34,305 bases of DNA. It comes from Thermoplasmatota archaeon (lineage in GTDB: Archaea; Thermoplasmatota; E2; DHVEG-1). The notes under the pieces are model-generated. The model did no database searches. It had not been told where the DNA came from and saw nothing but the letters and a program-made list of their open reading frames with translations. Location of the stretch: contig JAWOBC010000004.1 of assembly GCA_046498165.1 (NCBI GenBank), positions 1 to 34,305 of the forward strand, written 5' to 3'. The number at the start of each line of letters is the position of its first letter. The first letter of the stretch is position 1. A program made the position numbers and the translations under genes. Below, in pieces: positions 6,878-26,779 of the stretch.

Positions 6878-7269
6878 TGTTTCACATTCTTTTTCACAAA
6901 CTCAACGATTTCATCAACAGGAGTACCAGGGCCAAAAACTCCACCGATACCTTTTTTCTTTAATTTCGGTATATCCTCCTTAGGTATAATACCGCCACCA
7001 AGAACTAAGACATCACCTAATCCCTTTTCTTTTAACAGATCAGCGACATCAACAAAAAGCGTCATATGAGCACCAGACAACAAACTCAGGCCCACGACAT
7101 GGACATCTTCCTGAATCGCTGCTTCCACGATCATAGCTGGTGTTTGATGTAATCCGGTATAAATTACTTCCATCCCTGCATCACGGAGGGCACGAGCAAC
7201 CACTTTTGCCCCTCGGTCATGACCATCAAGCCCTGGCTTTGCGATAAGCACACGAATTTTTTGTTCCAT
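6874..7269 (-). CDS. icmB: B12-binding small subunit of acyl-CoA mutase (methylmalonyl-/isobutyryl-CoA mutase family)
   Basis: Cobalamin DxHxxG motif in [16 protein letters not shown]. 131 aa, the size of stand-alone IcmB and archaeal Mcm small subunits. Confidence 0.9.
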
Positions 7270-7294
7270 ACTAATTCACTCCCCATACTCTTTG

Positions 7295-8971
7295 TTAATA
7301 CAAACTTGTTTCCTTGTATTCTCCAAATTCATCACGAAATACCTGACAGATCTCACCAAGAGTAGCATACCCATGTACACACTCAAGGATATGAGGCATC
7401 AAATTACTCTCATCCCGTGTAGCCTTCCTTAGTTTTTCAAGTTTCTGATTAACCTTTATTTTATCCCGATTTTTTCGTAATTGTTGCAGTCGTTTAATCT
7501 GTCGTTCCTCACCTTTCTCATCCATTTTTAGAAGAGGGATATCGATTTCCTCATCAGTCTGATAATTGTTCACACCAACAATGGTTCGTTTCCGGTCATC
7601 AATTTCCTTTTGATATTTATATGCTGCTTCAGCGATTTCACGTTGGAAAAACCCTTTTTCAATGGCAGGAATCACCCCGCCTAATTGTTCAACGCGATCA
7701 AAATATTGGTAGGTTTCCTCCTCCATTTTATCTGTCAACCATTCAACATAATATGATCCACCTAAAGGATCAACGGTATGAGTTACCCCACTCTCTTCAG
7801 CAATAATCTGCTGTGTACGCAATGCAATACGCACTGCTTTCTCACTGGGAAGGGCGAGAGCTTCATCCATGGAATTTGTATGAAGAGATTGGGTTCCACC
7901 AAGAACCGCGGCAAGAGCCTGCATGGTCACCCGAACAATGTTGATTTCAGGTTGCTGCGCTGTTAAAGAACAACCCGCAGTCTGGGTATGAAAACGTAAA
8001 AGAAGAGATCTGTTCTTTTTTGCCCCTAGTTTTTTCATCTCCTTTGCCCAAATTCTTCGAGCAGCACGGTATTTTGCGATTTCTTCGAAGAAATCATTAT
8101 GAGCATTGAAAAAAAAGCTCAGACGAGGGGCAAACTGATCGATTTCAAGACCCCGCTCAACTGCCCATTTCACGTATTCAATGCCATCACCGAGGGTAAA
8201 GGCGAGTTCTTGCACCGCAGTAGAACCAGCCTCCCGAATATGATATCCGCTAATACTAATCGTGTTCCACCGAGGAACGTTTTTTGATCCATATTCAAAG
8301 GTATCAACGATCAAGCGCATGGATGGTTTTGGGGGGAAAATATATGATTTCTGCGCAATATATTCTTTTAAAATATCATTTTGAATGGTGCCACCAATTA
8401 AATCCTTACTGATACCTCTATTCTCAGCATTTGCTATATAAAACGCCCAAACAATAGCAGCAGGTCCATTAATGGTCATACTCGTGGTTACCTTATCAAT
8501 AGGAATATCCTGAAATAAAATCTCCATATCCTTTAATGAAGAAATAGCAACACCACATTTTCCAAATTCACCACGGGCCAAGGGATGATCTGTGTCATAT
8601 CCATAAAGCGTCGGGTAATCAAAGGCAACACTCAAACCAGTTTCACCATGATCAAGTAGATATTTATAGCGTTGGTTGGTCTCTTCAGCAGATCCAAAAC
8701 CGGCGAACTGCCGCATGGTCCACAGTCGTCCGCGATGCATGGTAGCATGGATACCTCGTAAAAAAGGAAATTCACCGGGAAAACCTCGATCTGAGAGATA
8801 CTCATCATCCTTAACATCCAGTGGGGTATACAGCGGATCAATAGTAATTGAGGAAAGGTTCTCAAACTCTTTTTTTCTCTCCGGATGGTTCTTAGTCAAA
8901 GCCTCATAGGTTTCCTTTTCCCAACTCTTCTTTGCTTTTTTGATGTCATCAAGGTTTTTTTTATCAACCAT
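7295..8971 (-). CDS. icmA: B12-dependent acyl-CoA mutase large (substrate-binding) subunit, methylmalonyl-CoA mutase family, with an isobutyryl-CoA-mutase-type Phe89/Gln207 signature
   Basis: Family blocks [65 protein letters not shown] and HTQTAG. 558 aa. Residue 89 is Phe (TTC, 8705-8707) and residue 207 is Gln (CAG, 8351-8353). Confidence 0.9.
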
Positions 8972-8991
8972 TTATCTTTCACCTATTTATG

Positions 8992-9510
8992 TTAAAAATC
9001 AATTCCCTTCCGTGACTGTATTCCTTTTTGATAAGGATGTTTTATCTCAAGCATCTCTGTGACAAGATCTGCTTTTTGGATAATTTTTTCATGTGCATAT
9101 CGGCCAGTTAACACCAGTTCGAGAGATTCTGGTTTCTCCTCCATGATTTTTAGAACATCCTGGAGTCTAATGAGATTGAAATCAACTGCAACATTAATTT
9201 CATCAAGAATAATAATATCATATTTGTTATCATAAATAATCTTTTTTGCAAAAGAAAATCCCTGTTGAGCCATATCAATATCTATCTGCTCAGGGTTTTC
9301 CTTATTGACAAATTCATCTCGACCATGCTGAGAAACCGAAAAATGTGACAAGTGAGCAATCGCATCAATCTCACTATACCGTCGACCTTTCATGAACTGA
9401 ATCATATGAACCTTAAATCCTTCACCTGTTGCCCGTAACCCTAGACCTAGCGCGGCAGTCGTTTTCCCTTTACCTGAACCAGTATAGACATGGATGAGAC
9501 CCTTTTTCAC
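8992..9510 (-). CDS. cobO: ATP:cob(I)alamin adenosyltransferase (CobA/CobO/BtuR type)
   Basis: N-terminal P-loop YTGSGKGKTTAALGLGLRA. 172 aa with a GTG start. It is the first gene of the mutase operon. Confidence 0.85.
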   Translation of the reverse strand: MKKGLIHVYTGSGKGKTTAALGLGLRATGEGFKVHMIQFMKGRRYSEIDAIAHLSHFSVSQHGRDEFVNKENPEQIDIDMAQQGFSFAKKIIYDNKYDIIILDEINVAVDFNLIRLQDVLKIMEEKPESLELVLTGRYAHEKIIQKADLVTEMLEIKHPYQKGIQSRKGIDF

Positions 9511-9620: not shown

Positions 9621-10763
9621 ATGCAATTAGAATTAAATGACCAACAAAAAATGATTCAAAAAATGGTTCGGGAGTTTGCTGAAAAAGAAGTTGCTCCCCT
9701 TGCTCAAGAACTCGATGAAAACGAGGAATACCCAACAAAGACCCTTGAAAAAATGGCCAAGTTGGGACTTCTCGGTGTCATCATTCCACAGGAATACGGA
9801 GGTGCAGGACTGGATACCATAAGCTATGAAATCGTAGTAGAGGAAATCTCACGGAAATGCGCATCAACTGGTGTTGTCACCTCGGTTCATAATTCCCTGG
9901 CAGCTTGGCCGATCATGCACTATGGAACCGAAGAACAAAAAAAGAAATATCTTCCCATTTTAGCAAAAGGAGAAAAAATCGGTGCATTTGCCGGAACAGA
10001 ACCAAATGCTGGATCAGATCTGGGGGCAATGAAAACTACAGCAACGCTCAAAGGAGACAAATACATCATCAACGGCGACAAAACATTCATCACCAGCGGT
10101 CCAGAAGCAGGAATCATCATTGTTTTTGCGGTTACTGATAAAGACGCTGGATCAAAAGGAATCAGTGCTTTCATCGTGGAAAGCGATATGAAAGGATACA
10201 AAGTCGGAAGTATCTTTGACAAACTCGGCATCAATGCCAGCAAAACATCAGAACTTATCTTCGAAGACATGGAAGTACCAAAAGAAAATCTTTTAGGAAA
10301 AGAAGGAGATGGTTTTAAGATCTGCCTTGCAACCTTAGATGGTGGACGTATTGGGATTGCTGCACAAGCCGTGGGTATCGCACAAGCCGCTCTTGATGAA
10401 TGCATTGAATATGCAAAACAACGACAACAATTCGGTCGACCGCTTGCGAAATTCCAAGCCATTCAATGGATGATAGCAGATATGGCCACCCGCGTAGAAG
10501 CAGCCCGAATGCTTACCCTGAATGCTGCTTATACCAAGGATCAAGGCAAAGGAAGATATTCAAAGGAAGCAGCCATGGCAAAACTCTATGCATCAGAAAC
10601 CGCTATGGACAGCGTCATCAAAGCCGTCCAAATCCATGGAGGATACGGCTACACCAAGGAATACACCGTGGAACGATTGTTCCGAGATGCAAAAATCACT
10701 GAGATCTATGAAGGAACCAGTGAAGTCCAACGCATGGTGATTGCTGCCAGTCTCCTTAGGTAA
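9621..10763 (+). CDS. Acyl-CoA dehydrogenase (short/medium-chain type), paralogue of 127-1266
   Basis: N-terminus MQLELNDQQKMIQKMVREF is collinear with MDFNLTDNQKLFKKTIRQF of the first ACAD, so start is ATG 9621. ORF-track 9582 adds 13 non-conserved residues. Motifs GTEPNAGSDLGAMKTTA and IYEGTSEVQRMVIA. Confidence 0.9.
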   Translation: MQLELNDQQKMIQKMVREFAEKEVAPLAQELDENEEYPTKTLEKMAKLGLLGVIIPQEYGGAGLDTISYEIVVEEISRKCASTGVVTSVHNSLAAWPIMHYGTEEQKKKYLPILAKGEKIGAFAGTEPNAGSDLGAMKTTATLKGDKYIINGDKTFITSGPEAGIIIVFAVTDKDAGSKGISAFIVESDMKGYKVGSIFDKLGINASKTSELIFEDMEVPKENLLGKEGDGFKICLATLDGGRIGIAAQAVGIAQAALDECIEYAKQRQQFGRPLAKFQAIQWMIADMATRVEAARMLTLNAAYTKDQGKGRYSKEAAMAKLYASETAMDSVIKAVQIHGGYGYTKEYTVERLFRDAKITEIYEGTSEVQRMVIAASLLR

Positions 10764-10783
10764 AGAATTTATTGTGTGATATT

Positions 10784-12424
10784 ATGGGAGAATTTAATTA
10801 TCAAAAAGAACGAGAACAATGGAAATGGAACATCCCAGATTACTACAACATTGGTTATGATTGTGTTGATAAACATGCTGAGGGGGAAAACAAACAAAAA
10901 CCTGCTCTGCTCTGGGAAAACGAACAAGGAGAAACAGCAAAGTATAGTTTTGTTGAAATGAAAACACTTACGGATAAATTTGGCAATATCCTCAAAGATC
11001 TTGGTCTTCAAAAAGAAGATCGATTCCTTATTCGACTCCCGGATATTCCTGCGTTTCAAACCTCCTTTCTAGGAGGTGTCAAAATTGGAACTGTCCCCAT
11101 TCCATCTAGTGTCATGTTTCGAGCAAAAGAAGTTGCCTACCGCATAAAGGATAGCGAAGCAAAAGCAGTGATTACTACAGAAGATTATGTTAAAGAAGTC
11201 CATGAGATCAAAGATAGTTGTCCAACATTAGATCATATCATCGTAGTTGGTGACATCACAAAAGATGAAATCAGCTACAACAACGAAATGAAACAAGCCT
11301 CACCCACGCTTGATCTGGAAAAAACAAAAAAAACAGATACCGCATTTTTCTGTTACACCTCAGGAACAACGGGTGATCCAAAGGGAGCAGTTCACTTGCA
11401 TCAATGGGTTCCCGGAAATGATCCCAGTGTGCTTTACTGGCAGAATACAATCAAAGATGACATCATTGGTCACACTGGGAACCTTAGCTGGATATTTCCT
11501 CTAGGAAATGGATTTCTCTATCCTTGGCGATGGGGGATTACCACCATGGTCTATGATGGAAAATTCACTCCCAATCGCTGGTATGAGCTCATTCAAAAAT
11601 ACAAAATCACCAATCTTGCCAGTGTTCCCACCTGCTACCGTATGTTTCTCACCATTGAAAACGCAGAAAAGACTTATGATCTTTCAAGCCTCCGGCATTG
11701 TATCTCAGCAGGGGAACCATTAAATCCAGAGGTGATGAAAAACTGGAAAAAACGATTTGGCATGCAGATCTATGATGGCATTGGCATGACCGAGGTCATG
11801 GTATATCTCTCAAACTTGAAAGATATGCCTATCAAAGCCGGGTCATGTGGTAAACCACAACCGGGTAAGATCTGTGACATTATCGATGAAAATGGTAATA
11901 TTCTACCAGCTGAAAAACCTGGGATGCTGGCGGTGAAGCGAACTGATCCTGGATTGTTCAGGGAGTACTGGAACAAACCAGAAAAAACACAGAAAAGCTT
12001 CAAAGGGGACTGGTTTTTTACTGGTGATGTCCTCTACAAGGATGAGGATGGATATTTCTGGTTCAGCGGACGAGATGATGATCTTATTATGGCCAGTGGC
12101 TACCGTATTTCACCATTTGAAGTTGAATCAGCAATCATCTCACATCCAGATGTCCTAGAAGCAGCAGTAGTGGCAAGTCCGGATGAAATGAGGGGAGTAA
12201 TCGTTAAATCATTTATCATTCTCCATGATTCTACTAAAGCTACTGATGAATTAAAAAAAGATATTCAAGAACACACCAAAAGAGTAGCTGCACCATATAA
12301 ATATCCAAGAGAAATTGAATTTGTAGAAGAACTTCCAAAAACACAAAGTGGAAAAATAAAACGAAAAAACCTGCGAGAAATGGAAAAACAAAGGAAAAAA
12401 ACAGAGCAGGGGGTAAAAATATGA
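10784..12424 (+). CDS. AMP-forming acyl-CoA synthetase, paralogue of 1290-2933
   Basis: Motifs CYTSGTTGDPKGAVH, SGYRISPFEVESA and PKTQSGKIKRKNLR. ATG 10784 (MGEFNYQ...) is preferred over the TTG at 10772. The stop overlaps the etfB start as ATGA (12421-12424). Confidence 0.85.
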   Translation: MGEFNYQKEREQWKWNIPDYYNIGYDCVDKHAEGENKQKPALLWENEQGETAKYSFVEMKTLTDKFGNILKDLGLQKEDRFLIRLPDIPAFQTSFLGGVKIGTVPIPSSVMFRAKEVAYRIKDSEAKAVITTEDYVKEVHEIKDSCPTLDHIIVVGDITKDEISYNNEMKQASPTLDLEKTKKTDTAFFCYTSGTTGDPKGAVHLHQWVPGNDPSVLYWQNTIKDDIIGHTGNLSWIFPLGNGFLYPWRWGITTMVYDGKFTPNRWYELIQKYKITNLASVPTCYRMFLTIENAEKTYDLSSLRHCISAGEPLNPEVMKNWKKRFGMQIYDGIGMTEVMVYLSNLKDMPIKAGSCGKPQPGKICDIIDENGNILPAEKPGMLAVKRTDPGLFREYWNKPEKTQKSFKGDWFFTGDVLYKDEDGYFWFSGRDDDLIMASGYRISPFEVESAIISHPDVLEAAVVASPDEMRGVIVKSFIILHDSTKATDELKKDIQEHTKRVAAPYKYPREIEFVEELPKTQSGKIKRKNLREMEKQRKKTEQGVKI

Positions 12425-13185
12425 ATATCATTGTCTGTGCAAAACAAGTCGTTGACATCTCAGAAATGAAAATGGATGCAAACACTAACAAACCCATTCT
12501 CTCTGGACTTGATAAAAAAGTCAATGAGATCGATAAAAACGCAGTAGAAGAAGCAATAAACATCAAAGAAGCCATCGGTGGAGGAAAAATAACCGTCATC
12601 ACTGTTGGTGAAGCAGATGCCAAAGAACGCATGAAAGAAATGCTTGCGATGGGTGCCGATGAAGGAATCATCATTAACCCACCAGAAAACCATGATTACG
12701 CGGTATTAACCACGATTTTATCAAAAGCAATTGAAAAAATCGATGACTATGACCTTGTTCTCTGCGGGGAAGCATCCACAGATATGTTCAGTGGTCAAGT
12801 CGGCCCACGTTTGGCGGGTATGCTAAATATCCCACAGATTACCTATGCTCAAAAAATACATGCAGATAAAGAAAAAATCACTGCAGAACGAAATCTTGGT
12901 GATACCACGATTACTATGGAATCGTCATATCCAGTTCTTATCACGGTTACCAAAGAGATCAATGAACCACGCCTGCCTAGTCTCATGCAAATCCTTGCTG
13001 CTGCAAATAAACCCATAAATGAATGGACAACCGATGATTTAAATATCAAGATTGAACCAAAGGTAAATAGCATCGACCTTCAAGGTGTTTCCATGGAAAG
13101 AAAAAACATTGTCTATGAAGATGACAGTGATGAATCCATTCAAAAACTGGTTGATAATCTTGCTAAAGAAGGAGTGTTGAGGTGA
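12421..13185 (+). CDS. etfB: Electron transfer flavoprotein beta subunit
   Basis: MNIIVCAKQVVD N-terminus and CGEASTDMFSGQVGPRLAG nucleotide-binding loop. 254 aa. Confidence 0.9.
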   Translation: MNIIVCAKQVVDISEMKMDANTNKPILSGLDKKVNEIDKNAVEEAINIKEAIGGGKITVITVGEADAKERMKEMLAMGADEGIIINPPENHDYAVLTTILSKAIEKIDDYDLVLCGEASTDMFSGQVGPRLAGMLNIPQITYAQKIHADKEKITAERNLGDTTITMESSYPVLITVTKEINEPRLPSLMQILAAANKPINEWTTDDLNIKIEPKVNSIDLQGVSMERKNIVYEDDSDESIQKLVDNLAKEGVLR

Positions 13186-14135
13186 TACCTATGACAATCG
13201 TTTATGCTGATAAAAAAACCATGGTCTTTGAATTACTCAAAAAAGCAGCTGAACTTTCAAAAGAAACCATCGCCGTTATCATTGGAGAAGAAAAAAAGGA
13301 TCTAGCGGTAGAATATATCTCCTATGGTGCAGACAAGGTCATCATGGTCGAAACTGATGTTGTCCAATATAAAGCGGAAGAATACGCTGAAATATTAAAA
13401 CAACTCATTGAAGAAAACAAAACCGAAACCGTCCTCATTGGATCAGATAAAAACGGAAAGGAACTTGCCTCACGACTTGCAGGCATCCTTGATACAGGCT
13501 GTGTGATTGATGCCACCAATGTGTCTCTGAAAGATGATAAGATCACCACGGAACGAGTCGTTTACAGTGGAAATGCTGTTGCTGTTGAACAATTCAACAC
13601 TACCCCAGCAATTATTACTGTTCCCTCCAAAGTATTTGATCCAATAAAACCAGATACCTCACGGAAGGGAGAAATCATAACCAAAAAGATATCCCCAGAA
13701 ACCGCAGCAACAACCATTACCAATATCTCAGAAAGCAAATCCGATGGAGTAAGCGTTGAAGATGCAGAGATCATTGTATCCTGTGGACGAGGATTCAAAA
13801 ACAAAGACGATCTCAAATATGCAACAGATTTAGCAGATGTCCTTAAAGGAAAAACCGTTGGCTGCAGCAGACCCATTGCTGCAGATCTGAAATGGCTACC
13901 TGAGGAACACTGGATCGGTCTTTCGGGTCATAAAGTAAAACCACAGCTTTACATAGCAGCAGGAATCTCAGGACAAATACAGCATATTGCGGGAATGAGA
14001 GATTCAGGCGTTGTCGTCGCAGTCAACAAAGATCCTGAAGCATTGATCTTTAACTCCGCGGATTATGGTATCGTTGGAGATTTATACAATGTTCTCCCAA
14101 AACTTACTACGGCGATAAAGGAGAAGATGGAATAA
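13182..14135 (+). CDS. etfA: Electron transfer flavoprotein alpha subunit (no N-terminal ferredoxin domain)
   Basis: FAD motif YIAAGISGQIQHIAGM plus VSCGRG and GCSRPI blocks. GTG 13182 overlaps the etfB stop. ATG 13191 is an alternative start. Confidence 0.9.
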   Translation: MIPMTIVYADKKTMVFELLKKAAELSKETIAVIIGEEKKDLAVEYISYGADKVIMVETDVVQYKAEEYAEILKQLIEENKTETVLIGSDKNGKELASRLAGILDTGCVIDATNVSLKDDKITTERVVYSGNAVAVEQFNTTPAIITVPSKVFDPIKPDTSRKGEIITKKISPETAATTITNISESKSDGVSVEDAEIIVSCGRGFKNKDDLKYATDLADVLKGKTVGCSRPIAADLKWLPEEHWIGLSGHKVKPQLYIAAGISGQIQHIAGMRDSGVVVAVNKDPEALIFNSADYGIVGDLYNVLPKLTTAIKEKME

Positions 14136-14140
14136 TACTT

Positions 14141-14158
14141 CTTATTCTTTCTTTTTTT
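14141..14158 (+). terminator. Oligo-T tract after etfA (archaeal-type terminator candidate)
   Basis: cttattctttcttttttt begins 6 nt after the etfA stop and includes a T7 run at 14152-14158. Confidence 0.3.
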
Positions 14159-14203
14159 ATTATTTAATCTTTTAATATACATATTGGATGAAGGTAGAAA
14201 ACT

Positions 14204-14731
14204 ATGGACCGAGAAAAAGATCGAGCATTAATTGAAGACATTCCCAAGGAAAAACTTGCTGATTTCGTGTTCATGCATCTACGAAACATGTGGGCTGTTG
14301 ACGGCTTTTACTACATGTTTATCGAAGAAACATATGGAACCGAGGTAGCAACGGAAATCGACCGAAGAGTCTGGGAGGTCATGGGAAAAATAGAAGCCCG
14401 GAAAATAAAGAAATTATTCGACATTACTGGTGATAGCCTATCTGATATGATCAACGCTCTCCGTTATTCAGGATGGACCATTGATCTTGAAGACAAAGAA
14501 ATCGAAGAAAAAAACGGAGTAGGTATCATTCGAAATGTAAAATGCCGGGTGCAAAACACACGAATCAATAAAGGGCTGGGAGAATTTGGCTGCAAACCCG
14601 TTCGAAAAGGATTTTTAACCTCTTTTGCAAAAGAATTCAATCCTGATATCAACCTCACCTGCAATGTTTGTCCTCCTGATGATCACCCTGATGATTTATG
14701 GTGCGAATGGGTGTTTTCCCTTAAAGAGTAA
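14204..14731 (+). CDS. Uncharacterised 175-aa cytoplasmic protein with a C-terminal Cys cluster (possibly ATC-hydrolase-like / DUF family)
   Basis: Clean ORF with its own upstream AT-rich region. The N-terminal half looks helical (MHLRNMWAVDGFYYMFIEETYG). The C-terminal half carries five Cys: KCRV, FGCKP, CNVC, WCEWVF. The family assignment is a recollection of overall pattern only. Confidence 0.6.
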   Translation: MDREKDRALIEDIPKEKLADFVFMHLRNMWAVDGFYYMFIEETYGTEVATEIDRRVWEVMGKIEARKIKKLFDITGDSLSDMINALRYSGWTIDLEDKEIEEKNGVGIIRNVKCRVQNTRINKGLGEFGCKPVRKGFLTSFAKEFNPDINLTCNVCPPDDHPDDLWCEWVFSLKE

Positions 14732-15022
14732 TTCAGGACAGTCTTATCACATTATTTTAATAACCAGCGTTGTGAATGGATCAACATAGATCATATGCAT
14801 GATAAGAAAATCACATATGACATTATTTTTGCCGATGGATAATGCTTATTTTTTATCAATTGCCGAAAAAAAGTTGGGAGATTTTATAAAGTAGTTCCTG
14901 ATTAGACCAAAGGGCAACAATCTTATAAATAAACTTGATTTCTCAACAATGAACACAAGCAATTATTCAACTTGGCCACAAAGCCATTCATATAATCATA
15001 AAAAATCAAGGAGGTTATCCAT

Positions 15023-15550
15023 TTGAGTATTGTTGATTTAACTTCTATGGGCGAATCACAAACAGAACTAAAGGAAGAAATAAATACTAGATTAAAAAAA
15101 CTACAAGATGAAGCATCAGCTTACTGCTTCCAATGTGCAAAATGCACCTCAGGTTGCGAAGCACACAAACTCCTAGAACTAGAACCCCATAATATCGTAG
15201 CCCTTCTCAAACGAGGCTTAATCGATGAAATGGTGAACTCAGATATCATCTGGACCTGTATGAGCTGTTTTAAATGCAGAGAACGCTGCCCACAAAAAGT
15301 GGCACCTGTTGATATTTTATTTGCATTAAAAAACATGGTCGTAGCACGAGGAAATCAAATACCTGGCAATTATTCAACTATGCTACAATTTGTTCTATCC
15401 ATGGGTCTCTTACAAGATGAAAAAGAAATGAGCACCATTGATAACAAAACCGTAAAACGGGATGATCTCGGACTGCCAGCACTCAGCAAACCACAGGATG
15501 CAAGCACATTTCAACAATTTTTATCAAAATTAGCAATGGAGAAAATATAA
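15023..15550 (+). CDS. hdrC: Heterodisulfide reductase subunit C-like (2x[4Fe-4S] ferredoxin-like)
   Basis: Two CxxCxxCxxxC motifs: CFQCAKCTSGCEA and CMSCFKCRERCPQ. TTG start lies 8 nt after AGGAGG (15009-15014). ATG 15047 is an alternative start. Confidence 0.8.
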   Translation: MSIVDLTSMGESQTELKEEINTRLKKLQDEASAYCFQCAKCTSGCEAHKLLELEPHNIVALLKRGLIDEMVNSDIIWTCMSCFKCRERCPQKVAPVDILFALKNMVVARGNQIPGNYSTMLQFVLSMGLLQDEKEMSTIDNKTVKRDDLGLPALSKPQDASTFQQFLSKLAMEKI

Positions 15551-15566
15551 AAAAAGGTGCAATCCT

Positions 15567-16445
15567 ATGAAAAAATATGTTTTTTACCCAGGTTGTGTGA
15601 TGCAAACAGAACAATACGCCTATGAACTCTCCATCCGGGAAGTTTTTCCACATCTAGATATTGAACTGGTCGACGTTAAAGGTTTCTCCTGTTGCGGTAC
15701 ACCACTGAAAAGCGTTAATCAAATGCTGACTCTTGCTCTTTCAGCTCGAAATATTGCGCTGGCTGAACAACAAGGTCATGACATCTTTGCACCCTGCTCT
15801 ATCTGCCATCACGGTCTGAGTGAATGCAAACATGTCCTTGACTCTGATGAAGACATGAAGAAACGGATTAACACCTATTTATCAGATGAAGATCTTAGCT
15901 ACCAAGGAACAGCAGAAATCGTTCACACCGTTGATCTCCTCCATGATGTTGTAACCCCAGAAGTCATCAAAAAAAAGGTGAAACAACCACTAGATGAAAT
16001 GAAACTAGCAACACATTACGGCTGTCATCTCATCCGACCTAAAGAAATCGGTCGACCCGTTGATTCAGAAAACCCTCAAAAAATGGAAATCATCCTCAAA
16101 GCCATTGGAGCAGAACCAAAAGAGTACCCAGAAAAACTTGATTGCTGCGGTGGTCTGCTTAATGCAAACCTACCAGAATCAGCATTAACTAAAACCGGTC
16201 AGAAACTACAACAAGTAAAAGCACAAGGGTTCGATGCCTTTGTAGATGTCTGCCCCTGGTGTCATCGACAATTCGATCAAAAACAAAAACAAGCAGGAAA
16301 AACAGTTGCAGAAACCCTTGATGTTCCTGTTTTTTATTTAACACAACTCCTCGGAGCTGCTCTAGGAATCGATAAAGAAAAACTTGGTTTCACCCTGAAT
16401 CAAAGTCCTATTCAAAGCATTACTATTGGGGGGAGCTCACCATGA
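15567..16445 (+). CDS. hdrB: Heterodisulfide reductase subunit B-like, two complete CCG domains
   Basis: Domain 1: PGC...GFSCCGTPL...CSICHH. Domain 2: YGCHL...LDCCGGLL...CPWCHRQF. 292 aa with an AGGTG SD. Confidence 0.9.
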   Translation: MKKYVFYPGCVMQTEQYAYELSIREVFPHLDIELVDVKGFSCCGTPLKSVNQMLTLALSARNIALAEQQGHDIFAPCSICHHGLSECKHVLDSDEDMKKRINTYLSDEDLSYQGTAEIVHTVDLLHDVVTPEVIKKKVKQPLDEMKLATHYGCHLIRPKEIGRPVDSENPQKMEIILKAIGAEPKEYPEKLDCCGGLLNANLPESALTKTGQKLQQVKAQGFDAFVDVCPWCHRQFDQKQKQAGKTVAETLDVPVFYLTQLLGAALGIDKEKLGFTLNQSPIQSITIGGSSP

Positions 16446-18424
16446 ACAAAAAAATCGGTGTCTTTATCTGTCACTGCGGAGAAAACATTGCATCCAAAGT
16501 AGATGTGAAAAAACTCTCAGAATATGCAGAAACATTAGATGATGTAGTGGTCAGTAAAACCTATAAATACATCTGCTCAGAAGCAGGAGCAACCCTGATT
16601 AAAGATACCATCAAAAAATACAAGCTTGATGCAGTGGTCACTGCATCCTGTTCACCTCGGATGCATGAAACAACGTTTCGTGGCATCATCAAAGATGGAG
16701 GTCTTAATCCATTTAATCTAGAAATCGCAAACATCCGGGAGCAATGCTCCTGGATCCATGATGATCCAAAAATCGCAACAGAAAAAGCCAAAAAAATATT
16801 AAAAGGAGCCGTTGCCAAAGCACGATTACTAGAATCACTTGAACCACCAAAAGTAAAAGTCATCCCAAAAGCAATGGTCATCGGAGGAGGAATCGCTGGC
16901 ATTCAGTCAGCACTGGATCTTGCTGAAGATGGACACCAAGTCTATCTCGTGGAAAAAACGCCTAGTATCGGCGGACGCATGGCTCAACTTGATAAAACCT
17001 TTCCCACGCTTGACTGCTCTGGATGTATCCTCACCCCAAAAATGAAAGAAGTTTTTTCCCATCCAAACATTGAACTCATCACTTATGCAGAAGTCAGCAA
17101 TGTCGATGGAACCATAGGCAATTACAAGGTGACCGTGAACAAAAAAGCTCGCTATGTCCAACTGGATAAATGCAAGGGCTGTGGTGACTGTGCAGAAGCA
17201 TGCAGACTCCATGATCGTATCATCAGTGAATTTGATATGGGTATGGGGAAACGCAGTGCAATTTACATTCCCTATGCACAAGCTGTTCCACCGAAATATA
17301 CCATTGACAAGGATACTTGTTTAATGCTTACCAAAGGCAAATGTGGTAGTGGTCCACTCTGCGTGGAAGCCTGTCCAGAGAAATGTATTGATTTCAATCA
17401 ACAAGATACCATTGTTGACATAAATGTTGGTGTTATTGTTGTTGCAACAGGTTATGATGTGTTAGATCCCTCAGCATTACATGAATACAGTTACCGTACC
17501 TCAGAAGATGTCATCACTAGCATGGAAATGGAACGACTCATTAACTCTGCTGGTCCCACCGATGGAAAAATTGTTTGTCCATCAAATGCAGAAAAACCAA
17601 AAAGTGTGACCTATGTACTCTGTGTTGGAAGTAGAGATGAAACCGCATGTTCCTGGTGCTGCCGCATTGGCTGTATGAGCGCCCTCAAACAAATATATCT
17701 TCTCAACGAAAAACTTGGAGATGACGTAGAACTTAACATCTGCTACACCGATATTCGAAGTTTTGGTAAAGGTTATGAAGAATTCTACCGGAAAATCCGA
17801 GGGATGAATGTGAATCTTTTTCGGGGACGGCCCTCAGAGGTACGAAACAGCGAAAAAGGTCTTATTATTGATATTTTTGATACCATAACAAACAAACTCT
17901 TTGAAATCACCTCTGATCTTGTGGTTCTTGTACCTGCGCTTGTTCCACGTGAAGATACGGAGACATTTTCTAGAATCCTACGGATTTCACAGAGTGCTGA
18001 TGGATTTTTGTTAGAAGCACATCCAAAACTACGTCCTATGGATACCTTTACCAGCGGAATCTTTATCGCTGGATCCTGTCAAGGACCAAAAGACATTCAG
18101 GATTCCGTTGCTCATGCCAGTGGCGCTGCAAGCAGAGCAGCAAACATTCTCTCCAAAAAAGAATATGAAACCGAGCCTTACATTTCAGTGGTCGATGAAG
18201 ACCTTTGTTCAGGTTGTGCAACCTGTATCTCCATCTGTCCCTATGATGCCATTGAACTTGAAAAACAAAAAGATGATACCACAATTGCAAAAGTCAATGA
18301 AACACTCTGCATGGGTTGTGGTGCTTGTGTTGTTGCCTGTCCATCAGGAGCCATGCAACAACGAGGATTCAATGATAAACAACTCCTGGCGATGATACAT
18401 GCTTATGCAAAGGAGGAGGATTGA
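16442..18424 (+). CDS. hdrA: Heterodisulfide reductase subunit A-like (FAD, multiple Fe-S; flavin-based bifurcation subunit)
   Basis: N-terminal Cys motif FICHCGENIA, FAD fold VIGGGIAGIQSALDLAEDG, and C-terminal ferredoxin motifs CSGCATCISICPYDAI and CMGCGACVVACPSGAM. 660 aa. ATGA overlap with hdrB. Confidence 0.9.
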   Translation: MNKKIGVFICHCGENIASKVDVKKLSEYAETLDDVVVSKTYKYICSEAGATLIKDTIKKYKLDAVVTASCSPRMHETTFRGIIKDGGLNPFNLEIANIREQCSWIHDDPKIATEKAKKILKGAVAKARLLESLEPPKVKVIPKAMVIGGGIAGIQSALDLAEDGHQVYLVEKTPSIGGRMAQLDKTFPTLDCSGCILTPKMKEVFSHPNIELITYAEVSNVDGTIGNYKVTVNKKARYVQLDKCKGCGDCAEACRLHDRIISEFDMGMGKRSAIYIPYAQAVPPKYTIDKDTCLMLTKGKCGSGPLCVEACPEKCIDFNQQDTIVDINVGVIVVATGYDVLDPSALHEYSYRTSEDVITSMEMERLINSAGPTDGKIVCPSNAEKPKSVTYVLCVGSRDETACSWCCRIGCMSALKQIYLLNEKLGDDVELNICYTDIRSFGKGYEEFYRKIRGMNVNLFRGRPSEVRNSEKGLIIDIFDTITNKLFEITSDLVVLVPALVPREDTETFSRILRISQSADGFLLEAHPKLRPMDTFTSGIFIAGSCQGPKDIQDSVAHASGAASRAANILSKKEYETEPYISVVDEDLCSGCATCISICPYDAIELEKQKDDTTIAKVNETLCMGCGACVVACPSGAMQQRGFNDKQLLAMIHAYAKEED

Positions 18425-18429
18425 AGCGT

Positions 18430-18858
18430 ATGGCAAAAGAAAAAGAATTCGAACCAAATATTATTGCATTTCTTTGTAATTGGTGTTCATATGCTGGATC
18501 AGATCTAGCAGGAACAAGTCGGATTAAATATCCACCAAATGTGCGGTCCATCCGGGTGATGTGCTCTGGACGAGTAGATACATCCTTTATTCTTAGTGCA
18601 CTCAAGGAAGGTGCAGATGGAGTATTAATCGCCGGCTGTCATCCAGGGGATTGTCATTATCAAACAGGAAATTATAAAACAAAAAGAAGAACCCTTCTCC
18701 TGAAAAAACTCATGGATCAACTCGGTATCGATGAAAAACGCGTCCGATTTGAATATGTATCAGCTTCAGAAGGACAAAAATTTGCTGATGTCGTCACTGA
18801 ATTCGTCGATGAACTCAAAAAACTAGGTCCATGCACCTTGAAAAAAGAGGTGAAATAA
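18430..18858 (+). CDS. mvhD: MvhD/FlpD-type hydrogenase delta subunit ([2Fe-2S] Hdr-Mvh connector)
   Basis: Motifs IAFLCNWCSYAG, RVMCSGRV and IAGCHPGDCHY. ATG 18430 lies 10 nt after GGAGGAGGA and is preferred over TTG 18421, which is only 1 nt from the SD. Confidence 0.85.
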   Translation: MAKEKEFEPNIIAFLCNWCSYAGSDLAGTSRIKYPPNVRSIRVMCSGRVDTSFILSALKEGADGVLIAGCHPGDCHYQTGNYKTKRRTLLLKKLMDQLGIDEKRVRFEYVSASEGQKFADVVTEFVDELKKLGPCTLKKEVK

Positions 18859-19847
18859 TGAGTGCGAAAAAAACAAAGAAACCACGATTTGCGTTTTACT
18901 GGGCTGCAAGCTGTGGTGGCTGTGAAATCGCCGTGCTTGACATCGATGAAAAAATCCTAGATGTTGCAGAAAACGCTGAAATCCTTTTCTGGCCTGTTGC
19001 CATGGATTTCAAATACCATGATGTTGAACAAATGAAGGATAATTATATTGATGTCTGCTTTTTCAATGGAGCGATACGAACCACGGAACAGGAGGAACTA
19101 GCAAAACTTCTTCGAAAAAAATCAAAGGTTCTTGTTGCTTTTGGAGCCTGTGCCACTCATGGTGGCATCCCGGGTCTAGCAAATGTTGCTGATAAAAAAG
19201 AAGTCTTTGAAACCGCGTATTTAGATAATCCTTCAACTGAAAACAAAGAAAAAATTGTTCCCAAAACAAAAACAAAGGTCAAAGAAGGCATCCTGACCCT
19301 CCCAGAGTTTTATGATACCGTGAAAAGCCTGGATCAAACCGTTGATGTAGACTACTACCTCCCCGGCTGTCCACCACCAACAAAACTCATCCTCAACGCA
19401 GTCACTGCTATCCTTGAAGGAAAACTTCCAAAGAAAGGATCAGTGCTTGCACCAATGAAATCAGTCTGTGATGAATGCCCTCGAGAACGATCAGAAAAAA
19501 TGCTCAACGACATTAAACGTGTCTATGAAACAACAGATATTGATCCTGAGAAATGCCTGCTTGAACAAGGAATCATCTGCCTGGGTCCTGCAACCCGTGG
19601 AGGCTGTGATGCACGTTGTCTTGATGCAAACATGCCCTGCACTGGCTGTGGTGGACCAACACCACAATCTCTGGATCAAGGAGCGAAAATGATATCTGCA
19701 TTAGCATCAATCATTGGCGTAGATCATGAAGAAGATATGACTGAAGATGAACTCAATGATTTGATAGAAAAAATTAGAGATCCCATTGGAATCTTTTACA
19801 AATATGGATTGCCCAAAGCAATTATCAACCGGAAGGTGAAAAAATGA
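18858..19847 (+). CDS. mvhG: [NiFe]-hydrogenase small subunit, MvhG-like (group 3c)
   Basis: FYWAASCGGCEIAVLD proximal-cluster motif and further Cys clusters (CDECP, CTGCGGP). ATG 18858 overlaps the mvhD stop (TAATG) and follows GAGGTGA. ORF-track 18831 is an extension. Confidence 0.85.
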   Translation: MSAKKTKKPRFAFYWAASCGGCEIAVLDIDEKILDVAENAEILFWPVAMDFKYHDVEQMKDNYIDVCFFNGAIRTTEQEELAKLLRKKSKVLVAFGACATHGGIPGLANVADKKEVFETAYLDNPSTENKEKIVPKTKTKVKEGILTLPEFYDTVKSLDQTVDVDYYLPGCPPPTKLILNAVTAILEGKLPKKGSVLAPMKSVCDECPRERSEKMLNDIKRVYETTDIDPEKCLLEQGIICLGPATRGGCDARCLDANMPCTGCGGPTPQSLDQGAKMISALASIIGVDHEEDMTEDELNDLIEKIRDPIGIFYKYGLPKAIINRKVKK

Positions 19848-21298
19848 AAACCATAACCATTGATCCCATTACCCGACTAGAAGGACATGGGAAAATAAAC
19901 ATCTTTCTTAATGACAAAGGAAACGTTGAAAATGCTTATCTTCAAATCCCTGAGCTTAGAGGCTTTGAACGATTCTGTCAGGCACGATGTGCTGAGGATA
20001 TGCCTCAGATCACCTCTCGTATCTGTGGAGTGTGCCCAGTTGCTCATCATTTTGCTGCAACCAAAGCTCTTGATGATGCATTTAATGTTGAACCACCCGA
20101 GGCAGCTAAAAAACTCCGGGAACTCATGTACTGTGGTTATGTTATTTATGATCACATCCTTCATTTCTACTATCTTGGTGGACCAGATTTTGTGGTTGGA
20201 CCAGATGCACCAGCAGCTCAACGAAATATCCTCGGCGTTATCGAAAAAGCAGGTCTTGATATAGGTAAAGAAGTCATCAAACATCGATCATATGGGCAAA
20301 AAATCACTGCTATTCTTGGAGGAAAAGCAACTCATCCCGTCTGCGGTCTGCCCGGTGGTGTCTCAAAAGGGCTCAACAAAGATGAAGTCGATGACATCAA
20401 AAAAATGGTTGATTCCAGTATCAAATTCGCAGAGTTCTCATTAAAACTCTTTAATGATATCATTTTGGAAAACAAGGATTATGTATCCATGATCAAAAGT
20501 GATCCCTATCAACTCAACACCTATAATATGGGACTTGTGGATGACAACGATCAACTTAATTTCTATGATGGACAAATACGAATCACTGATCAAAAAGGAG
20601 AAGAATATCTGAAATTTCCGGTTCAACAATATCATGATCACATCGATGAACATGTCGAAGAATGGAGTTACATGAAATTTCCCTACATCAAAAAAATCGG
20701 GTGGAAAGGACTTTCTGATGGAGAAAACAGTGGAATCTACCGAGTAGGTCCTCTGGGAAGACTCAATGCTTCAAAAGGCATGGCAACATCAAAGGCTGAT
20801 AAAGCCTACAAAAAAATGTATGACACCTTTGGTGGTACACCAATTAACTCAACTCTTGCCTTTCACTGGGCACGGCTTATTGAACTTCTTTATGTAACTG
20901 AAAGAGCAAAAGAACTGATCACGGATTCTATCATTACCTCAAAAAACATCCGAAACCCGGTGGGAGAACCTGGGGAGGGATATGGAGTTGTAGAAGCAGC
21001 ACGGGGAACACTGATTCATCATTATAAACTCAATGAACACGGCATGGTTGATAAAGCAAACTTGATTGTGGCCACTACGAATAATGCTGGAGCTATTACC
21101 ATGTCCGTTCGTGATGCAGCGAAAGGAGTCATCAAAAATGGAAAAGTAGATGATGGTATTCTCAACCAGGTGGAAATGGCCTTTCGCGCTTATGATCCCT
21201 GTTTTGCCTGTGCTACTCATGCATTACCTGGTGGTATGCCCATGCAAATTGATATCTATGACAATCAGAAAAATCTGTACAAAACCTATAAACAATAA
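19844..21298 (+). CDS. mvhA: [NiFe]-hydrogenase large subunit, MvhA-like (group 3c)
   Basis: Motifs ITRLEGHGKI, N-terminal Ni-binding RICGVCPVAHH, and C-terminal DPCFACATH followed by a cleavable tail. 484 aa. ATGA overlap with mvhG. Confidence 0.9.
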   Translation: MKTITIDPITRLEGHGKINIFLNDKGNVENAYLQIPELRGFERFCQARCAEDMPQITSRICGVCPVAHHFAATKALDDAFNVEPPEAAKKLRELMYCGYVIYDHILHFYYLGGPDFVVGPDAPAAQRNILGVIEKAGLDIGKEVIKHRSYGQKITAILGGKATHPVCGLPGGVSKGLNKDEVDDIKKMVDSSIKFAEFSLKLFNDIILENKDYVSMIKSDPYQLNTYNMGLVDDNDQLNFYDGQIRITDQKGEEYLKFPVQQYHDHIDEHVEEWSYMKFPYIKKIGWKGLSDGENSGIYRVGPLGRLNASKGMATSKADKAYKKMYDTFGGTPINSTLAFHWARLIELLYVTERAKELITDSIITSKNIRNPVGEPGEGYGVVEAARGTLIHHYKLNEHGMVDKANLIVATTNNAGAITMSVRDAAKGVIKNGKVDDGILNQVEMAFRAYDPCFACATHALPGGMPMQIDIYDNQKNLYKTYKQ

Positions 21299-21311
21299 AA
21301 ACAGCTCAAAT

Positions 21312-21785
21312 ATGAAAACCATACTTCTCGGAATCGGCAATCCCATACTTGGTGATGATGGTATCGGCATAAAAATCCTCCAAATCCTTAAAAAAAGGAT
21401 AACAAACAATGATATCGTTTTTGAAGAAGCAATGACTGGTGGAATGAATCTTCTTGATATCATCAAGGGATTTCAAAAAGCGATTCTTATTGATGCTATC
21501 TATGATAGACAAGCACCCCTTGGCTCAGTCAAACGATTAAGCATTCATGATTGTGCAACTGTTCATTCCTGTAATCCTCATGATGTTAGTCTTGCTGAAG
21601 CAATACAACTTGCTACAAAACTAGGGGAAGAAAACATTCCAAAAGAAATTATTATCATTGGAATCGTCCTGCATGAAACACCTGTTGAATTCACTGAAAA
21701 AATTAGCCCTAATATCGCAGAAGCCATTCCAAAAGCAACTAAGATGATTCTCTCAGAGATCAACCATTCAGAACACAAGGAATGA
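21312..21785 (+). CDS. Hydrogenase maturation endopeptidase (HycI/FrhD/HyaD family)
   Basis: The conserved N-terminus MKTILLGIGNPILGDDGIGIK starts at ATG 21312. The ORF-track start at 21150 overlaps mvhA in another frame and is not conserved. Confidence 0.85.
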   Translation: MKTILLGIGNPILGDDGIGIKILQILKKRITNNDIVFEEAMTGGMNLLDIIKGFQKAILIDAIYDRQAPLGSVKRLSIHDCATVHSCNPHDVSLAEAIQLATKLGEENIPKEIIIIGIVLHETPVEFTEKISPNIAEAIPKATKMILSEINHSEHKE

Positions 21786-23077
21786 AAACAATCATGAACA
21801 GAATACTTTCTTTAGACGTCCTTAGAGGTTTTCTCATCTTTTATGTGGTTTTCATCCATGCGGTTCTTCTCATCATTTTTCAAGCAAACTATGATTACAT
21901 CGACCTTCTCCCAATCTGGCTGATTGCTCTGATGTTTCCATTGCTTATTTTAGCGATGTGGGGTCCTCTGTTTTCCATGATGTCCGCAGCTACAAACACC
22001 ACTCTCGTTTATCATCAACTCGAAAAAGGAAAACCTCTTACAAAAACCCTTTTTCAGAGGATGATTAGTTATGCGCTCATCGTCATTGTTCATCTTATCA
22101 ACATGATTTTTTTCATTCATTTCATCCCTCTGGATGGAAACATCTATCGATCACTTCTCTGTGGCACAATTGAAACTGGTCAACTCACCATCCCAAACAT
22201 ATTTATGTTTCTTAACTCAGGGACACTTCTTCTTATTGGCTTATCAGGCTTGTTGATAAATTTGATCTTGTTCTTTTTATGGAGAAACAACGGACATAAA
22301 AACATTAAAAGAACCGCTGCTATGTTTATTGGATTAGCAATTGTTTTTCTCATCATCAGACCATTTATCTATCCATCAACGGAATCCATTATTCTTTTGC
22401 TTGTTGAACAAAACAATCTTATCCCAGCGATTCTACTTTCATGGCTCTTTAGAGGACAATTTGGCCTTATTCCCATGGCGGCTATTCCCTTTTTTGGCGT
22501 TATCTTTGGATTGTTACTTACAACAAAACCGACCAAAAAACATATGCTCAACATAGGATTCATTGCTACCATTGGAATGTTACTTGTTTCACTTCTATTC
22601 CTTGGAATATTTGGTATACCAGATCTCACCCTGACCTATTGGCCAATTAGCATGGTTGCCTTTAACTTAATGCTTATGATCTTGGTCATGACACTGGTGA
22701 TCGTTCGCTATGATTATTGTTCTTTTGAGAAACGACTGAAACGAGCCAAACGAACCGTGTTTTTTAGAAGATTCAGCATGATAACTCTCACCATGTTTGT
22801 GTTTGAATCAATCATAGCTGTACTCTGGGCAAAACTTTTTACTTTCTTATTTGTCGACCCATTTCCCTATAATGTTTTCGCAGATCTCTTGTTTCTCTTC
22901 AGTGTTCTTGCAACATGGTATGTCATCGCTCGATTTTGGGAAAAAATTGATTTTAAATTCAGCATTGAATGGTTCATGATCAAAATACTTAGTCGCATTA
23001 GAGGAAAAACCTCACAAAAATTAGATGTTCACACTGTTTTATATCATCCAATCCCAACAGAGAAACTTGATAACTAA
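21782..23077 (+). CDS. Polytopic membrane protein, YeiB/DUF418-DUF1624 (HGSNAT/acyltransferase-3-like) type
   Basis: About 10-11 hydrophobic segments. N-terminal RILSLDVLRGFLIF motif is typical of this family. ATGA overlap with the protease gene stop (21782-21785). Confidence 0.7.
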   Translation: MKTIMNRILSLDVLRGFLIFYVVFIHAVLLIIFQANYDYIDLLPIWLIALMFPLLILAMWGPLFSMMSAATNTTLVYHQLEKGKPLTKTLFQRMISYALIVIVHLINMIFFIHFIPLDGNIYRSLLCGTIETGQLTIPNIFMFLNSGTLLLIGLSGLLINLILFFLWRNNGHKNIKRTAAMFIGLAIVFLIIRPFIYPSTESIILLLVEQNNLIPAILLSWLFRGQFGLIPMAAIPFFGVIFGLLLTTKPTKKHMLNIGFIATIGMLLVSLLFLGIFGIPDLTLTYWPISMVAFNLMLMILVMTLVIVRYDYCSFEKRLKRAKRTVFFRRFSMITLTMFVFESIIAVLWAKLFTFLFVDPFPYNVFADLLFLFSVLATWYVIARFWEKIDFKFSIEWFMIKILSRIRGKTSQKLDVHTVLYHPIPTEKLDN

Positions 23078-24761: not shown

Positions 24762-24776
24762 AGCTGATTTCCTCTC

Positions 24777-25271: not shown

Positions 25272-25274
25272 AGC

Positions 25275-26777: not shown

Positions 26778-26779
26778 AG

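Follow-up and report, generated by a model that had tools for sequence, protein, structure and literature searches.

A putative soluble link between electron transfer flavoprotein and HdrABC-Mvh hydrogenase in an acyl-CoA oxidation island of a Thermoplasmatota archaeon

The DNA analyzed here is a 34,305-nucleotide (34.3-kb) stretch of contig JAWOBC010000004.1 from a Thermoplasmatota archaeon, referred to in full length as the window. It contains an operon for an electron transfer flavoprotein (ETF), acd-acs-etfB-etfA, followed on the same strand by an operon encoding heterodisulfide reductase (Hdr) and [NiFe] hydrogenase (Mvh) subunits, hdrCBA-mvhDGA. The reading tentatively favored, with a confidence just short of even, is that an ETF that does not use NADH shuttles electrons from acyl-CoA dehydrogenases to soluble HdrCBA, where their confurcation with electrons from ferredoxin would drive H2 formation. 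The acyl-CoA/enoyl-CoA couple, acting through ETF, would replace CoM-S-S-CoB as the high-potential arm at the FAD of HdrA.

The etf and hdr-mvh gene clusters

Window proteins were annotated by a Pfam scan of all 36 main open reading frames (ORFs), complemented with NCBIfam models, and TATA-like boxes and T tracts were identified by eye from the sequence. Related loci were obtained by searching an EtfA alignment against species-representative genomes and JGI metagenomes, and the window proteins were mapped onto these loci (numbered with the prefix L) and their 10-kb flanks. Loci whose EtfA is at least 55% identical are treated as the Thermoplasmatota clade and were dereplicated at 90% identity.

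The etf operon lies on the forward strand and begins with acd2 (9621..10763, within an ORF open from 9582; Pfam Acyl-CoA_dh_N/M/1), encoding the acyl-CoA dehydrogenase predicted to donate electrons to ETF. The start at 9621 is supported by homologues of 380 amino acids (aa), and the closest NCBIfam resemblance, below cut-off, is to Bcd/AcrC-type enzymes. An AMP-forming acyl-CoA synthetase gene, acs2 (10772..12424; Pfam AMP-binding and AMP-binding_C), follows, with the branched-chain acyl-CoA synthetase MbcS as its nearest NCBIfam model, again below cut-off. The ETF subunits, identified by Pfam and PDB comparison and, for the small subunit, motif tables, are encoded by etfB (small subunit, 12421..13185; Pfam ETF) and etfA (large subunit, 13182/13191..14135; Pfam ETF and ETF_alpha, no N-terminal ferredoxin domain). 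The likely etfA start is the ATG at 13191, where homologues begin, and a database homologue of the window EtfA is 314 aa long. An earlier sequence-only reading described acd-acs-etfB-etfA as coupled by ATGA overlaps; this is correct for acs/etfB only, as acd and acs are separated by 8 to 20 nt and etfB and etfA either overlap by GTGA or lie 5 nt apart.

Two features reported in that reading between etfA and hdrC, a T7 tract and a 291-bp gap, are exactly where it placed them. The tract (14152-14158) is a plausible archaeal terminator; oligo-T tracts are termination signals in archaea. The small Cys protein that the same reading noted 3' of etfA is a DUF6125 protein (14204..14731, forward strand), which is considered below. 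The intergenic region beyond it (14732..15022) contains a T6 run, the TATA-like boxes TTTATAAA / CTTATAAATA and an AGGAGG before hdrC, and is likely the promoter region of the hdr-mvh operon itself.

The hdr-mvh operon (forward strand) begins with hdrC (15023..15550; Pfam Fer4_8/17, NCBIfam HdrC models below cut-off), the 2x[4Fe-4S] subunit, and hdrB (15567..16445; Pfam CCG twice). HdrB can be aligned over its whole length with methanogen HdrB, and the ten Cys of its two complete CCG motifs are all retained. The FAD/Fe-S bifurcating subunit encoded by hdrA (16442..18424) is full length, with residues 3-656 aligning with the methanogen HdrA structures 8rvu_a and 5odc_A (phmmer, E ~1e-212 to 4e-214). 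The [2Fe-2S] adaptor gene mvhD (18421..18858) matches Pfam FlpD (1e-56) and VhuD/HdrA2 C-terminus models, and mvhG (18857..19847; Pfam Oxidored_q6, VhuG model) encodes the small hydrogenase subunit, its start supported by homologues of 329 to 332 aa. The large subunit gene, mvhA (19844..21298; Pfam NiFeSe_Hases, VhuA model), is of the group 3c type, and its translation contains L1 (RICGVCPVAH) and L2 (AYDPCFACATH), matching the group 3c motifs ICGxCxxxH and AYDPCxxCATH (PMC6085437). The best PDB matches of MvhA are the bifurcating NiFe hydrogenase 7t2r and MvhA 5odc_F, and the NCBIfam Vhu models for MvhD, MvhG and MvhA score under their cut-offs. A hydrogenase maturation endopeptidase (21312..21785; Pfam HycI, TIGR00072 above cut-off) follows.

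Junctions are ATGA for hdrB/hdrA, mvhG/mvhA and protease/next gene, TTGA for hdrA/mvhD, and TAATG for mvhD/mvhG. The packed gene order claimed in the sequence-only reading is therefore as described, except that the operon continues past the protease: the gene ATGA-coupled to it (21782..23077, forward strand) encodes a 431-aa protein with 10 predicted transmembrane (TM) segments and a weak Acyl_transf_3 match. No TM segments are predicted in any ETF, Hdr or Mvh subunit of the window. By gene content, hdrCBA-mvhDGA is a complete soluble MvhADG-HdrABC-type set in a nonmethanogenic host.

The possibility that the 10-TM protein serves as membrane anchor or accepts ETF electrons was rejected, as it is conserved in the closest relative (L081) only. 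Its gene is probably a recent insertion, outside the system.

The roles of ETF motifs were taken from mutagenesis and structural work on Ldh-EtfAB, in which mutation of RxFxG, SPT and DGDTAQVGP abolishes NADH-linked activity (PMC9232219). The EtfB NAD(H) site has no RxFxG in the window or anywhere in the clade; it reads PP--ENH--DY and is two residues shorter. The SPT arm anchor is likewise absent, in a shortened region, in the window and clade; it is present in L027, L036, L048 and L070. The unusual EtfB loop reported earlier, STDMFSGQVGP, is present in the translation, and the motif at the bifurcating FAD (b-FAD) reads DMFSGQVGP versus DGDTAQVGP, retaining D, Q, V, G and P and replacing GD with MF; across the clade it is D[ML]FSGQxGP. 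Bcd-type ETFs from the same searches and alignment (Omnitrophota, Planctomycetota and others) keep DRAFAGSD, DGDTAQVGP and SPT, and most of those recovered also have an N-terminal ferredoxin domain on EtfA (L048 does not). The EtfA Arg that contacts N5 of b-FAD (TTERVVYSGN) is present in the window, but it is not diagnostic because it is conserved in every other ETF class aligned.

The PP-containing EtfB loop presumably resembles that of human ETFB, and the sequence is compatible with a nonbifurcating Group 1 ETF, a type in which AMP takes the place of FAD in EtfB and NADH dehydrogenase activity is lacking. The motifs suggest that the window ETF does not use NADH, and self-sufficient bifurcation by it is unlikely. 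With neither RxFxG nor SPT, the ETF would therefore require an external redox partner.

Neighborhood conservation and acceptors of related ETFs

The core conserved in every clade locus consists of the blocks thl-hbd-crt and meaB-mutase-cobO, placed divergently to acd-acs-etfB-etfA, which is usually followed by DUF6125. Hdr genes occur in the fetched flank of 10 of the 36 dereplicated EtfA-centered loci, against ~0.6 expected if two Hdr loci were placed randomly in a 1.8-Mb genome (Poisson P ~1e-9, a figure that overstates the significance, as the loci are phylogenetically nonindependent). The variety of arrangements carries more weight than this count. The comparison of related neighborhoods that the sequence-only reading had proposed as a check thus came out in its favor: the association of ETF with Hdr exceeds chance, recurs down to 57% EtfA identity and takes at least five gene arrangements.

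The arrangement of the window, etfA-DUF6125-hdrCBA-mvhDGA-protease, is found down to 73% EtfA identity (L081-86, L170 and L173). The upstream context differs in L173, where the cluster reads acs-fd-acd-etfBA-DUF6125-hdrCBA-mvhDGA. The fd gene between acs and acd (L173:5307-5519) encodes a 70-aa 2x[4Fe-4S] ferredoxin, a candidate low-potential partner. A second arrangement, acd-etfBA-thl-hbd-crt-hdrCBA-mvhDGA, occurs in L012 and L010 at 57% EtfA identity. Here, the crt-hdrC gap is 0 nt and overlaps continue through mvhA, with gaps of 124 and 40 nt around thl; the cluster is therefore read as a single operon. The L012 contig (JBKHKA010000004.1) is labeled Candidatus Aenigmatarchaeota, and its genes are 44 to 73% identical to those of the window, which may reflect mis-binning or lateral transfer of the entire module.

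Other arrangements retain Hdr beside ETF with different partner modules. In L014 (68% EtfA identity; 550-6725), etfA is followed after 46 bp by hdrC-hdrB-hdrA and genes for a NuoE-like [2Fe-2S] protein, the N-terminal stretch of which is HdrA-like, and a NuoF-like FMN/NADH subunit, with no mvhDGA; such a locus would encode an ETF-Hdr module linked to NADH. In L009 (62%; 3185-9403), etfA precedes a NuoB/C/D/I-like set, an HdrA::MvhD fusion, HdrC'B' and then orthologous hdrCBA, and the NiFe cysteine motifs of the large subunit are incomplete (RICVLES; GCPADIDR). The L009 cluster resembles a Helarchaeota cluster (PMC6478937) and the detached MbhJKLN arm of Thermoprofundales subgroup E (PMC9585477). 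The modules are shuffled within 20 kb in L002 and L171 (71%), where hdrCBA lies tail to tail with the etf operon and mvhGA-protease-mvhD is located ~6 kb away, past carboxylase genes. In a rough neighbor-joining tree, in which the position of L014 rests on a partial EtfA, ETF-Hdr adjacency is found in basal branches and in the clade of the window, with losses in clades of 65 to 69% identity.

These loci modify the pairing of ETF with Hdr-Mvh suggested in the sequence-only reading. The association of ETF with HdrCBA holds, whereas the hydrogenase is swapped for NuoEF-like (L014) or NuoBCDI-like (L009) proteins. Mvh is one of several modules found with ETF-linked Hdr, and the conserved pair is therefore ETF and HdrCBA. 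Put forward more tentatively still is an undescribed class of complexes in sedimentary Thermoplasmatota in which ETF, loaded with electrons from beta-oxidation and amino acids, would be the high-potential substrate of HdrBC and HdrA would couple it to ferredoxin and to interchangeable Mvh, NuoEF-like and NuoBCDI-like modules.

The nearest outgroup ETFs are those of Bathyarchaeia (40 to 42% identity) and one Nitrososphaerales metagenome-assembled genome (MAG). The neighbor of etfBA in these loci (L015, L016, L018, L109, L111, L115, L116 and L033:1092-3200) encodes a protein of 640 to 780 aa with 2 to 4 predicted TM segments (3 or 4 in Bathyarchaeia), followed by HdrC- and HdrB-like domains, i.e., the EtfD/EMO (DUF224) type. 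This gene adjoins etfB in most of them; in L015, it is ~4 kb away on the opposite strand. The distribution suggests that ETF oxidation of the EtfD type occurs widely among archaea. FixC/FixX-like genes precede etfB in the Chloroflexi loci that share the motif class.

Structural and biochemical evidence shows that EtfD accepts electrons from ETF, and the soluble portion of EtfD is a homologue of HdrBC down to the CCG-bound clusters (PMC13083937). Membrane HdrF paralogues of Desulfobacterium autotrophicum cluster with glpAB or etfBA (hdrF3-etfBA) (PMC2702500). In this part of the ETF family, the gene adjoining etfBA appears to encode the ETF acceptor, usually an HdrBC-type module. The location of outgroup ETFs beside EtfD-like proteins, together with the homology of EtfD and HdrBC, makes docking of ETF on HdrBC a reasonable inference.

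Mechanism, direction and alternative explanations

In the proposed mechanism, acyl-CoA dehydrogenase would reduce the ETF FAD, as is known for the family. Gene context and homology suggest that ETF would then dock on HdrBC, passing electrons to the CCG clusters of HdrB and on to the [4Fe-4S] clusters of HdrC, and that the HdrA FAD would merge these high-potential electrons with low-potential electrons of reduced ferredoxin. Mid-potential electron pairs would, in keeping with family knowledge, travel via MvhD and MvhG to the [NiFe] site of MvhA and be released as H2. The stoichiometry would suit amino acid breakdown: one ferredoxin is reduced per 2-oxoacid oxidized by 2-oxoacid:ferredoxin oxidoreductase and one ETF per acyl-CoA dehydrogenated, and the two combined would yield two H2. 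The mean of ~-10 mV and ~-500 mV is ~-255 mV, equivalent to ~1 Pa H2 or less (calculated from standard potentials), which would confine the proposed H2 release to very low H2.

The physiological direction of the complex, which would be reversible, is most likely H2 evolution at low sediment H2, during oxidation of branched- and short-chain acyl-CoA with amino acids or fatty acids as the source. The oxidative direction is favored because the etf operon contains an AMP-forming MbcS-like synthetase, because the carboxylase and methylglutaconyl-type hydratase encoded downstream fit leucine/isovalerate breakdown and because the mutase fits valine/isobutyrate breakdown. Operation in reverse, with H2 oxidized and HdrA bifurcating electrons to ferredoxin and, via HdrBC and ETF, to enoyl-CoA, would serve butyrate or branched-chain-acid fermentation or chain elongation, as an analogue of Bcd-EtfAB using H2 for NADH. 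Canonical MvhADG-HdrABC does oxidize H2 (PMC5861303), heterodisulfide is a poorer high-potential acceptor than enoyl-CoA (~-10 mV), thl-hbd-crt is reversible, and the NuoEF-like module of L014 would be an exact functional match for NADH-dependent Bcd-EtfAB. This direction is nevertheless distinctly improbable, given that the AMP-forming synthetase in the etf operon spends ATP to activate free acids, that the ATP-consuming carboxylase and mutase branches in the island are typical of catabolism, that neither a CoA-transferase nor an ADP-forming synthetase was found in the window and that H2 is generally very low in sulfate-reducing or methanogenic sediments.

Several findings weigh against the proposed ETF-HdrCBA link. 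The etf and hdr units of the window are separate transcription units, divided by the T7 tract and the 291-bp gap with promoter-like boxes, and no Hdr gene lies near ETF in five relatives with 9 to 10 kb of downstream flank (L004, L008, L088, L098 and L102). Orthologous hdrCBA (70% identity) in L169 and L172 (CP070712.1 and CP070635.1) has no adjacent mvh and is preceded by genes for a DAO/BFD-[2Fe-2S] flavoprotein, a Pyr_redox_2 protein and a DUF1667 protein (L169:6281-12842, L172:6298-12845), a trio resembling glycerol-3-phosphate or proline dehydrogenase; on CP070712.1, ~330 kb separate hdrCBA from etf, and no etf was located on CP070635.1. The hdrCBA genes of L174 occur alone. With hdrCBA beside another flavoprotein set or by itself, HdrCBA therefore looks not to be dedicated to ETF and to act as a hub for other flavoprotein dehydrogenases also, which mirrors the HdrF paralogues of D. 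autotrophicum (PMC2702500). HdrB has the full ten-Cys set of a catalytic disulfide reductase and may therefore act on a thiol/disulfide substrate. All positive loci may descend from one ancestral adjacency, and ETF, the b-FAD motif of which is only partly degenerate, may bind a second FAD.

Most of these observations, namely, the separate transcription units, the relatives without adjacency, hdrCBA beside other flavoproteins or alone and the complete catalytic Cys set of HdrB, favor an explanation in which the two operons are neighbors without direct exchange. Hdr-Mvh would then be a general H2/ferredoxin/disulfide bifurcating complex or dehydrogenase hub, located near the beta-oxidation genes as part of an island of energy metabolism, and the ETF acceptor, e.g., a membrane or soluble HdrD-like protein, would be encoded elsewhere; L169 does contain a 421-aa Fer4/CCG (HdrD-like) gene ~9 kb from hdrCBA. 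This explanation is unlikely, without being negligible. It leaves unaccounted for the 0-nt crt-hdrC junction of L012 and the 46-bp etfA-hdrC junction of L014, the persistence of ETF and Hdr together despite inversions and module swaps, and the excess of observed over expected adjacencies. By comparison, it is very improbable that the ETF is a self-sufficient NADH-dependent bifurcating protein of the Bcd-EtfAB type unrelated to the hdr-mvh operon. In PDB comparisons, EtfB and EtfA score highest against bifurcating ETFs (5ol2, 6fah, 7qh2 and 4kpu), ahead of human and Paracoccus ETF, and both QVGP in the b-FAD motif and the Arg of EtfA are retained. However, the Arg is also found in every non-Bcd ETF aligned, and RxFxG and SPT are absent and GD is replaced by MF or LF clade-wide, whereas Bcd-type ETFs keep all three motifs, the mutation of which eliminates NADH-linked activity in Ldh-EtfAB (PMC9232219). 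The NADH-bifurcating type was rejected on these motifs, and soluble transfer from ETF to HdrCBA continues to be the preferred reading.

Flanking genes, host and relation to known systems

The DUF6125 protein (175 aa, Cys-rich; Pfam PF19620) is strongly conserved, specific to the lineage and encoded directly 3' of etfA in 28 related loci (e.g., L002:4711-5241 and L088:10994-11545), whether or not Hdr is nearby. Its invariant residues are C114, C130, C153, C156, H161 and C167. An AlphaFold2 model (predicted local distance difference test score, 86.6) weakly matches TRAPP Bet3, H-NOX and MopR/PoxR phenol-sensor (V4R-like) folds (E ~0.006-0.05). In the model, the Cys/His cluster resembles a structural metal site, and the protein may be a fatty-acid- or acyl-CoA-binding or -sensing partner of the ETF operon. 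The idea that it carries thiol/disulfide equivalents from ETF to Hdr or back, in the manner of DsrC, was set aside, as DUF6125 is absent from the ETF- and Hdr-containing loci L009, L010, L012 and L014; its position next to etfA in Hdr-free loci and its V4R/Bet3/MopR-like fold, the matches being weak, disfavor such a role further. In several relatives, an HpaB_N/HpaB-family gene lies just 3' of etfA-DUF6125 (L002:5245-6702, L087:16524-17963, L088:15298-16749 and L171:12907-14397); the window contains none. The HpaB family includes 4-hydroxybutyryl-CoA dehydratase.

The etf and hdr-mvh operons are flanked, as the sequence-only reading stated, by further acyl-CoA dehydrogenase, thiolase, hbd, crt, mutase and carboxylase genes, to which acs, meaB, cobO and two enoyl-CoA hydratase genes can be added. 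Upstream, acd1-acs1-thiolase-hbd-crt (127-5912, forward strand) and meaB, the B12-binding subunit, acyl-CoA mutase and cobO (5933-9510, reverse strand), assigned by Pfam, form a block (127..9510) that is a conserved neighbor of the acd-acs-etfBA operon in relatives. Downstream, Pfam identifies carboxyltransferase, BCCP, biotin carboxylase and two enoyl-CoA hydratases (23154..28457, reverse strand), and one hydratase resembles NCBIfam gamma-carboxygeranoyl/methylglutaconyl-CoA hydratase models, with a score below cut-off. This set would fit a leucine/isovalerate-type acyl-CoA carboxylase branch. The reported lack of FixC/FixX and ETF:quinone oxidoreductase is borne out by the Pfam scan of the 36 main ORFs of the window, which detects no second CCG-domain protein either. 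The region 28624-34159 starts with the gene for a Fur-family regulator, behind which oxidative-stress genes are tightly clustered (flavin reductase-rubredoxin fusion, flavodiiron protein, peroxiredoxin, ferritin, PAS protein, two rubrerythrins and desulfoferrodoxin), a gene content typical of a strict anaerobe that meets oxygen occasionally.

The window has a G+C content of ~40%, and the closest named relatives of EtfA, DUF6125 and HdrB are from Thermoplasmatales/Thermoplasmatota MAGs and single-cell genomes, including SG8-52-3 and SCGC AB-539-N05. The latter carries the locus tag MBGDN05, and the window is therefore placed, on protein similarity, in the Marine Benthic Group D/Thermoprofundales (MBG-D) radiation. 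MBG-D archaea are uncultured, abundant in sediment, protein degrading and nonmethanogenic (PMC6461988), and HdrA transcripts are listed for them in situ in the MBG-D literature. The window contains no mcr or CoM/CoB genes.

Electrons from acyl-CoA dehydrogenation are released at ~-10 mV, and the known solutions in anaerobes are membrane bound, either EtfD/EMO and menaquinone with reverse electron transport or FixABCX. How strict anaerobes dispose of these high-potential electrons is one question; which high-potential partner serves HdrABC in nonmethanogens (Flox-Hdr, and Mvh-Hdr of Asgard and other sediment archaea) is another. If the proposal is correct, a soluble ETF-HdrABC-hydrogenase module, with all components soluble and encoded within ~12 kb, would answer both for MBG-D/Thermoprofundales, which are among the most abundant archaea in marine sediments. 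It would give anaerobes a quinone-free, membrane-free route for acyl-CoA dehydrogenase electrons and would couple degradation of proteins and fatty acids stoichiometrically to H2 release in MBG-D sediments. The literature searched yielded no match for Etf-Hdr complex names, and the MBG-D genome literature searched has no mention of ETF, Mvh or beta-oxidation; within this scope, an ETF-HdrABC-Mvh link is undescribed.

The closest known system by gene content is MvhADG-HdrABC of methanogens (5ODC and 8RVU), with which the window shares six full-length subunits in one operon, CCG motifs, L1/L2 and a protease. The window differs in its nonmethanogenic host and in the position of the operon next to etfBA and acyl-CoA genes, to which it is joined as one operon in relatives. 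In the proposed complex, the high-potential partner would be ETF/enoyl-CoA rather than heterodisulfide, and the direction would be H2 evolution. Bcd-EtfAB, CarCDE and Ldh-EtfAB share the acd-etfBA order and the combination of an enoyl-CoA/acyl-CoA couple, ferredoxin and a mid-potential carrier. Unlike these, the window ETF lacks RxFxG and SPT; bifurcation would take place at the HdrA flavin, with H2 (or NADH via the NuoEF-like genes of L014) as the mid-potential carrier. FixABCX/EtfABCX systems encode FixC and FixX with etfBA, whereas the window has neither.

EtfD/EMO/HdrF3 proteins of mycobacteria, syntrophs and sulfate reducers likewise place an HdrC-like 2x[4Fe-4S] domain and two CCG domains beside etfBA. 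EtfD/EMO is a single polypeptide with an N-terminal TM (cytochrome b-like) domain, whereas HdrC and HdrB of the window are separate soluble proteins without TM segments, encoded 0.9 kb downstream of etfA. EtfD/EMO passes electrons to quinone, whereas the HdrBC and HdrA of the window would feed a bifurcating flavin and hydrogenase. HdrABC bifurcation with this new high-potential arm would, if correct, be a soluble, bifurcation-coupled counterpart of EtfD.

FlxABCD-HdrABC is also a soluble HdrABC system of nonmethanogens with a swappable donor module, and Flox-Hdr of syntrophs has been proposed to confurcate, with a DsrC-type or unspecified disulfide assumed as partner (PMC6687939, PMC5606693, PMC5017805). 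In the window, the donor module is a [NiFe] hydrogenase rather than Flx, and the context names a candidate partner, ETF. Electron-confurcating MvhADG-HdrABC evolving H2 has been proposed for Prometheoarchaeum syntrophicum MK-D1, with the high-potential donor unnamed (PMC7015854). As in the present proposal, MK-D1 is an archaeal amino acid degrader in which Mvh-Hdr would release H2 from ferredoxin reduced by 2-oxoacid oxidation (PMC7015854). The acd-etfAB clusters of MK-D1 were interpreted as encoding another, separate confurcating complex, one that serves butyrate fermentation (PMC7015854), whereas the neighborhood in the window links the two.

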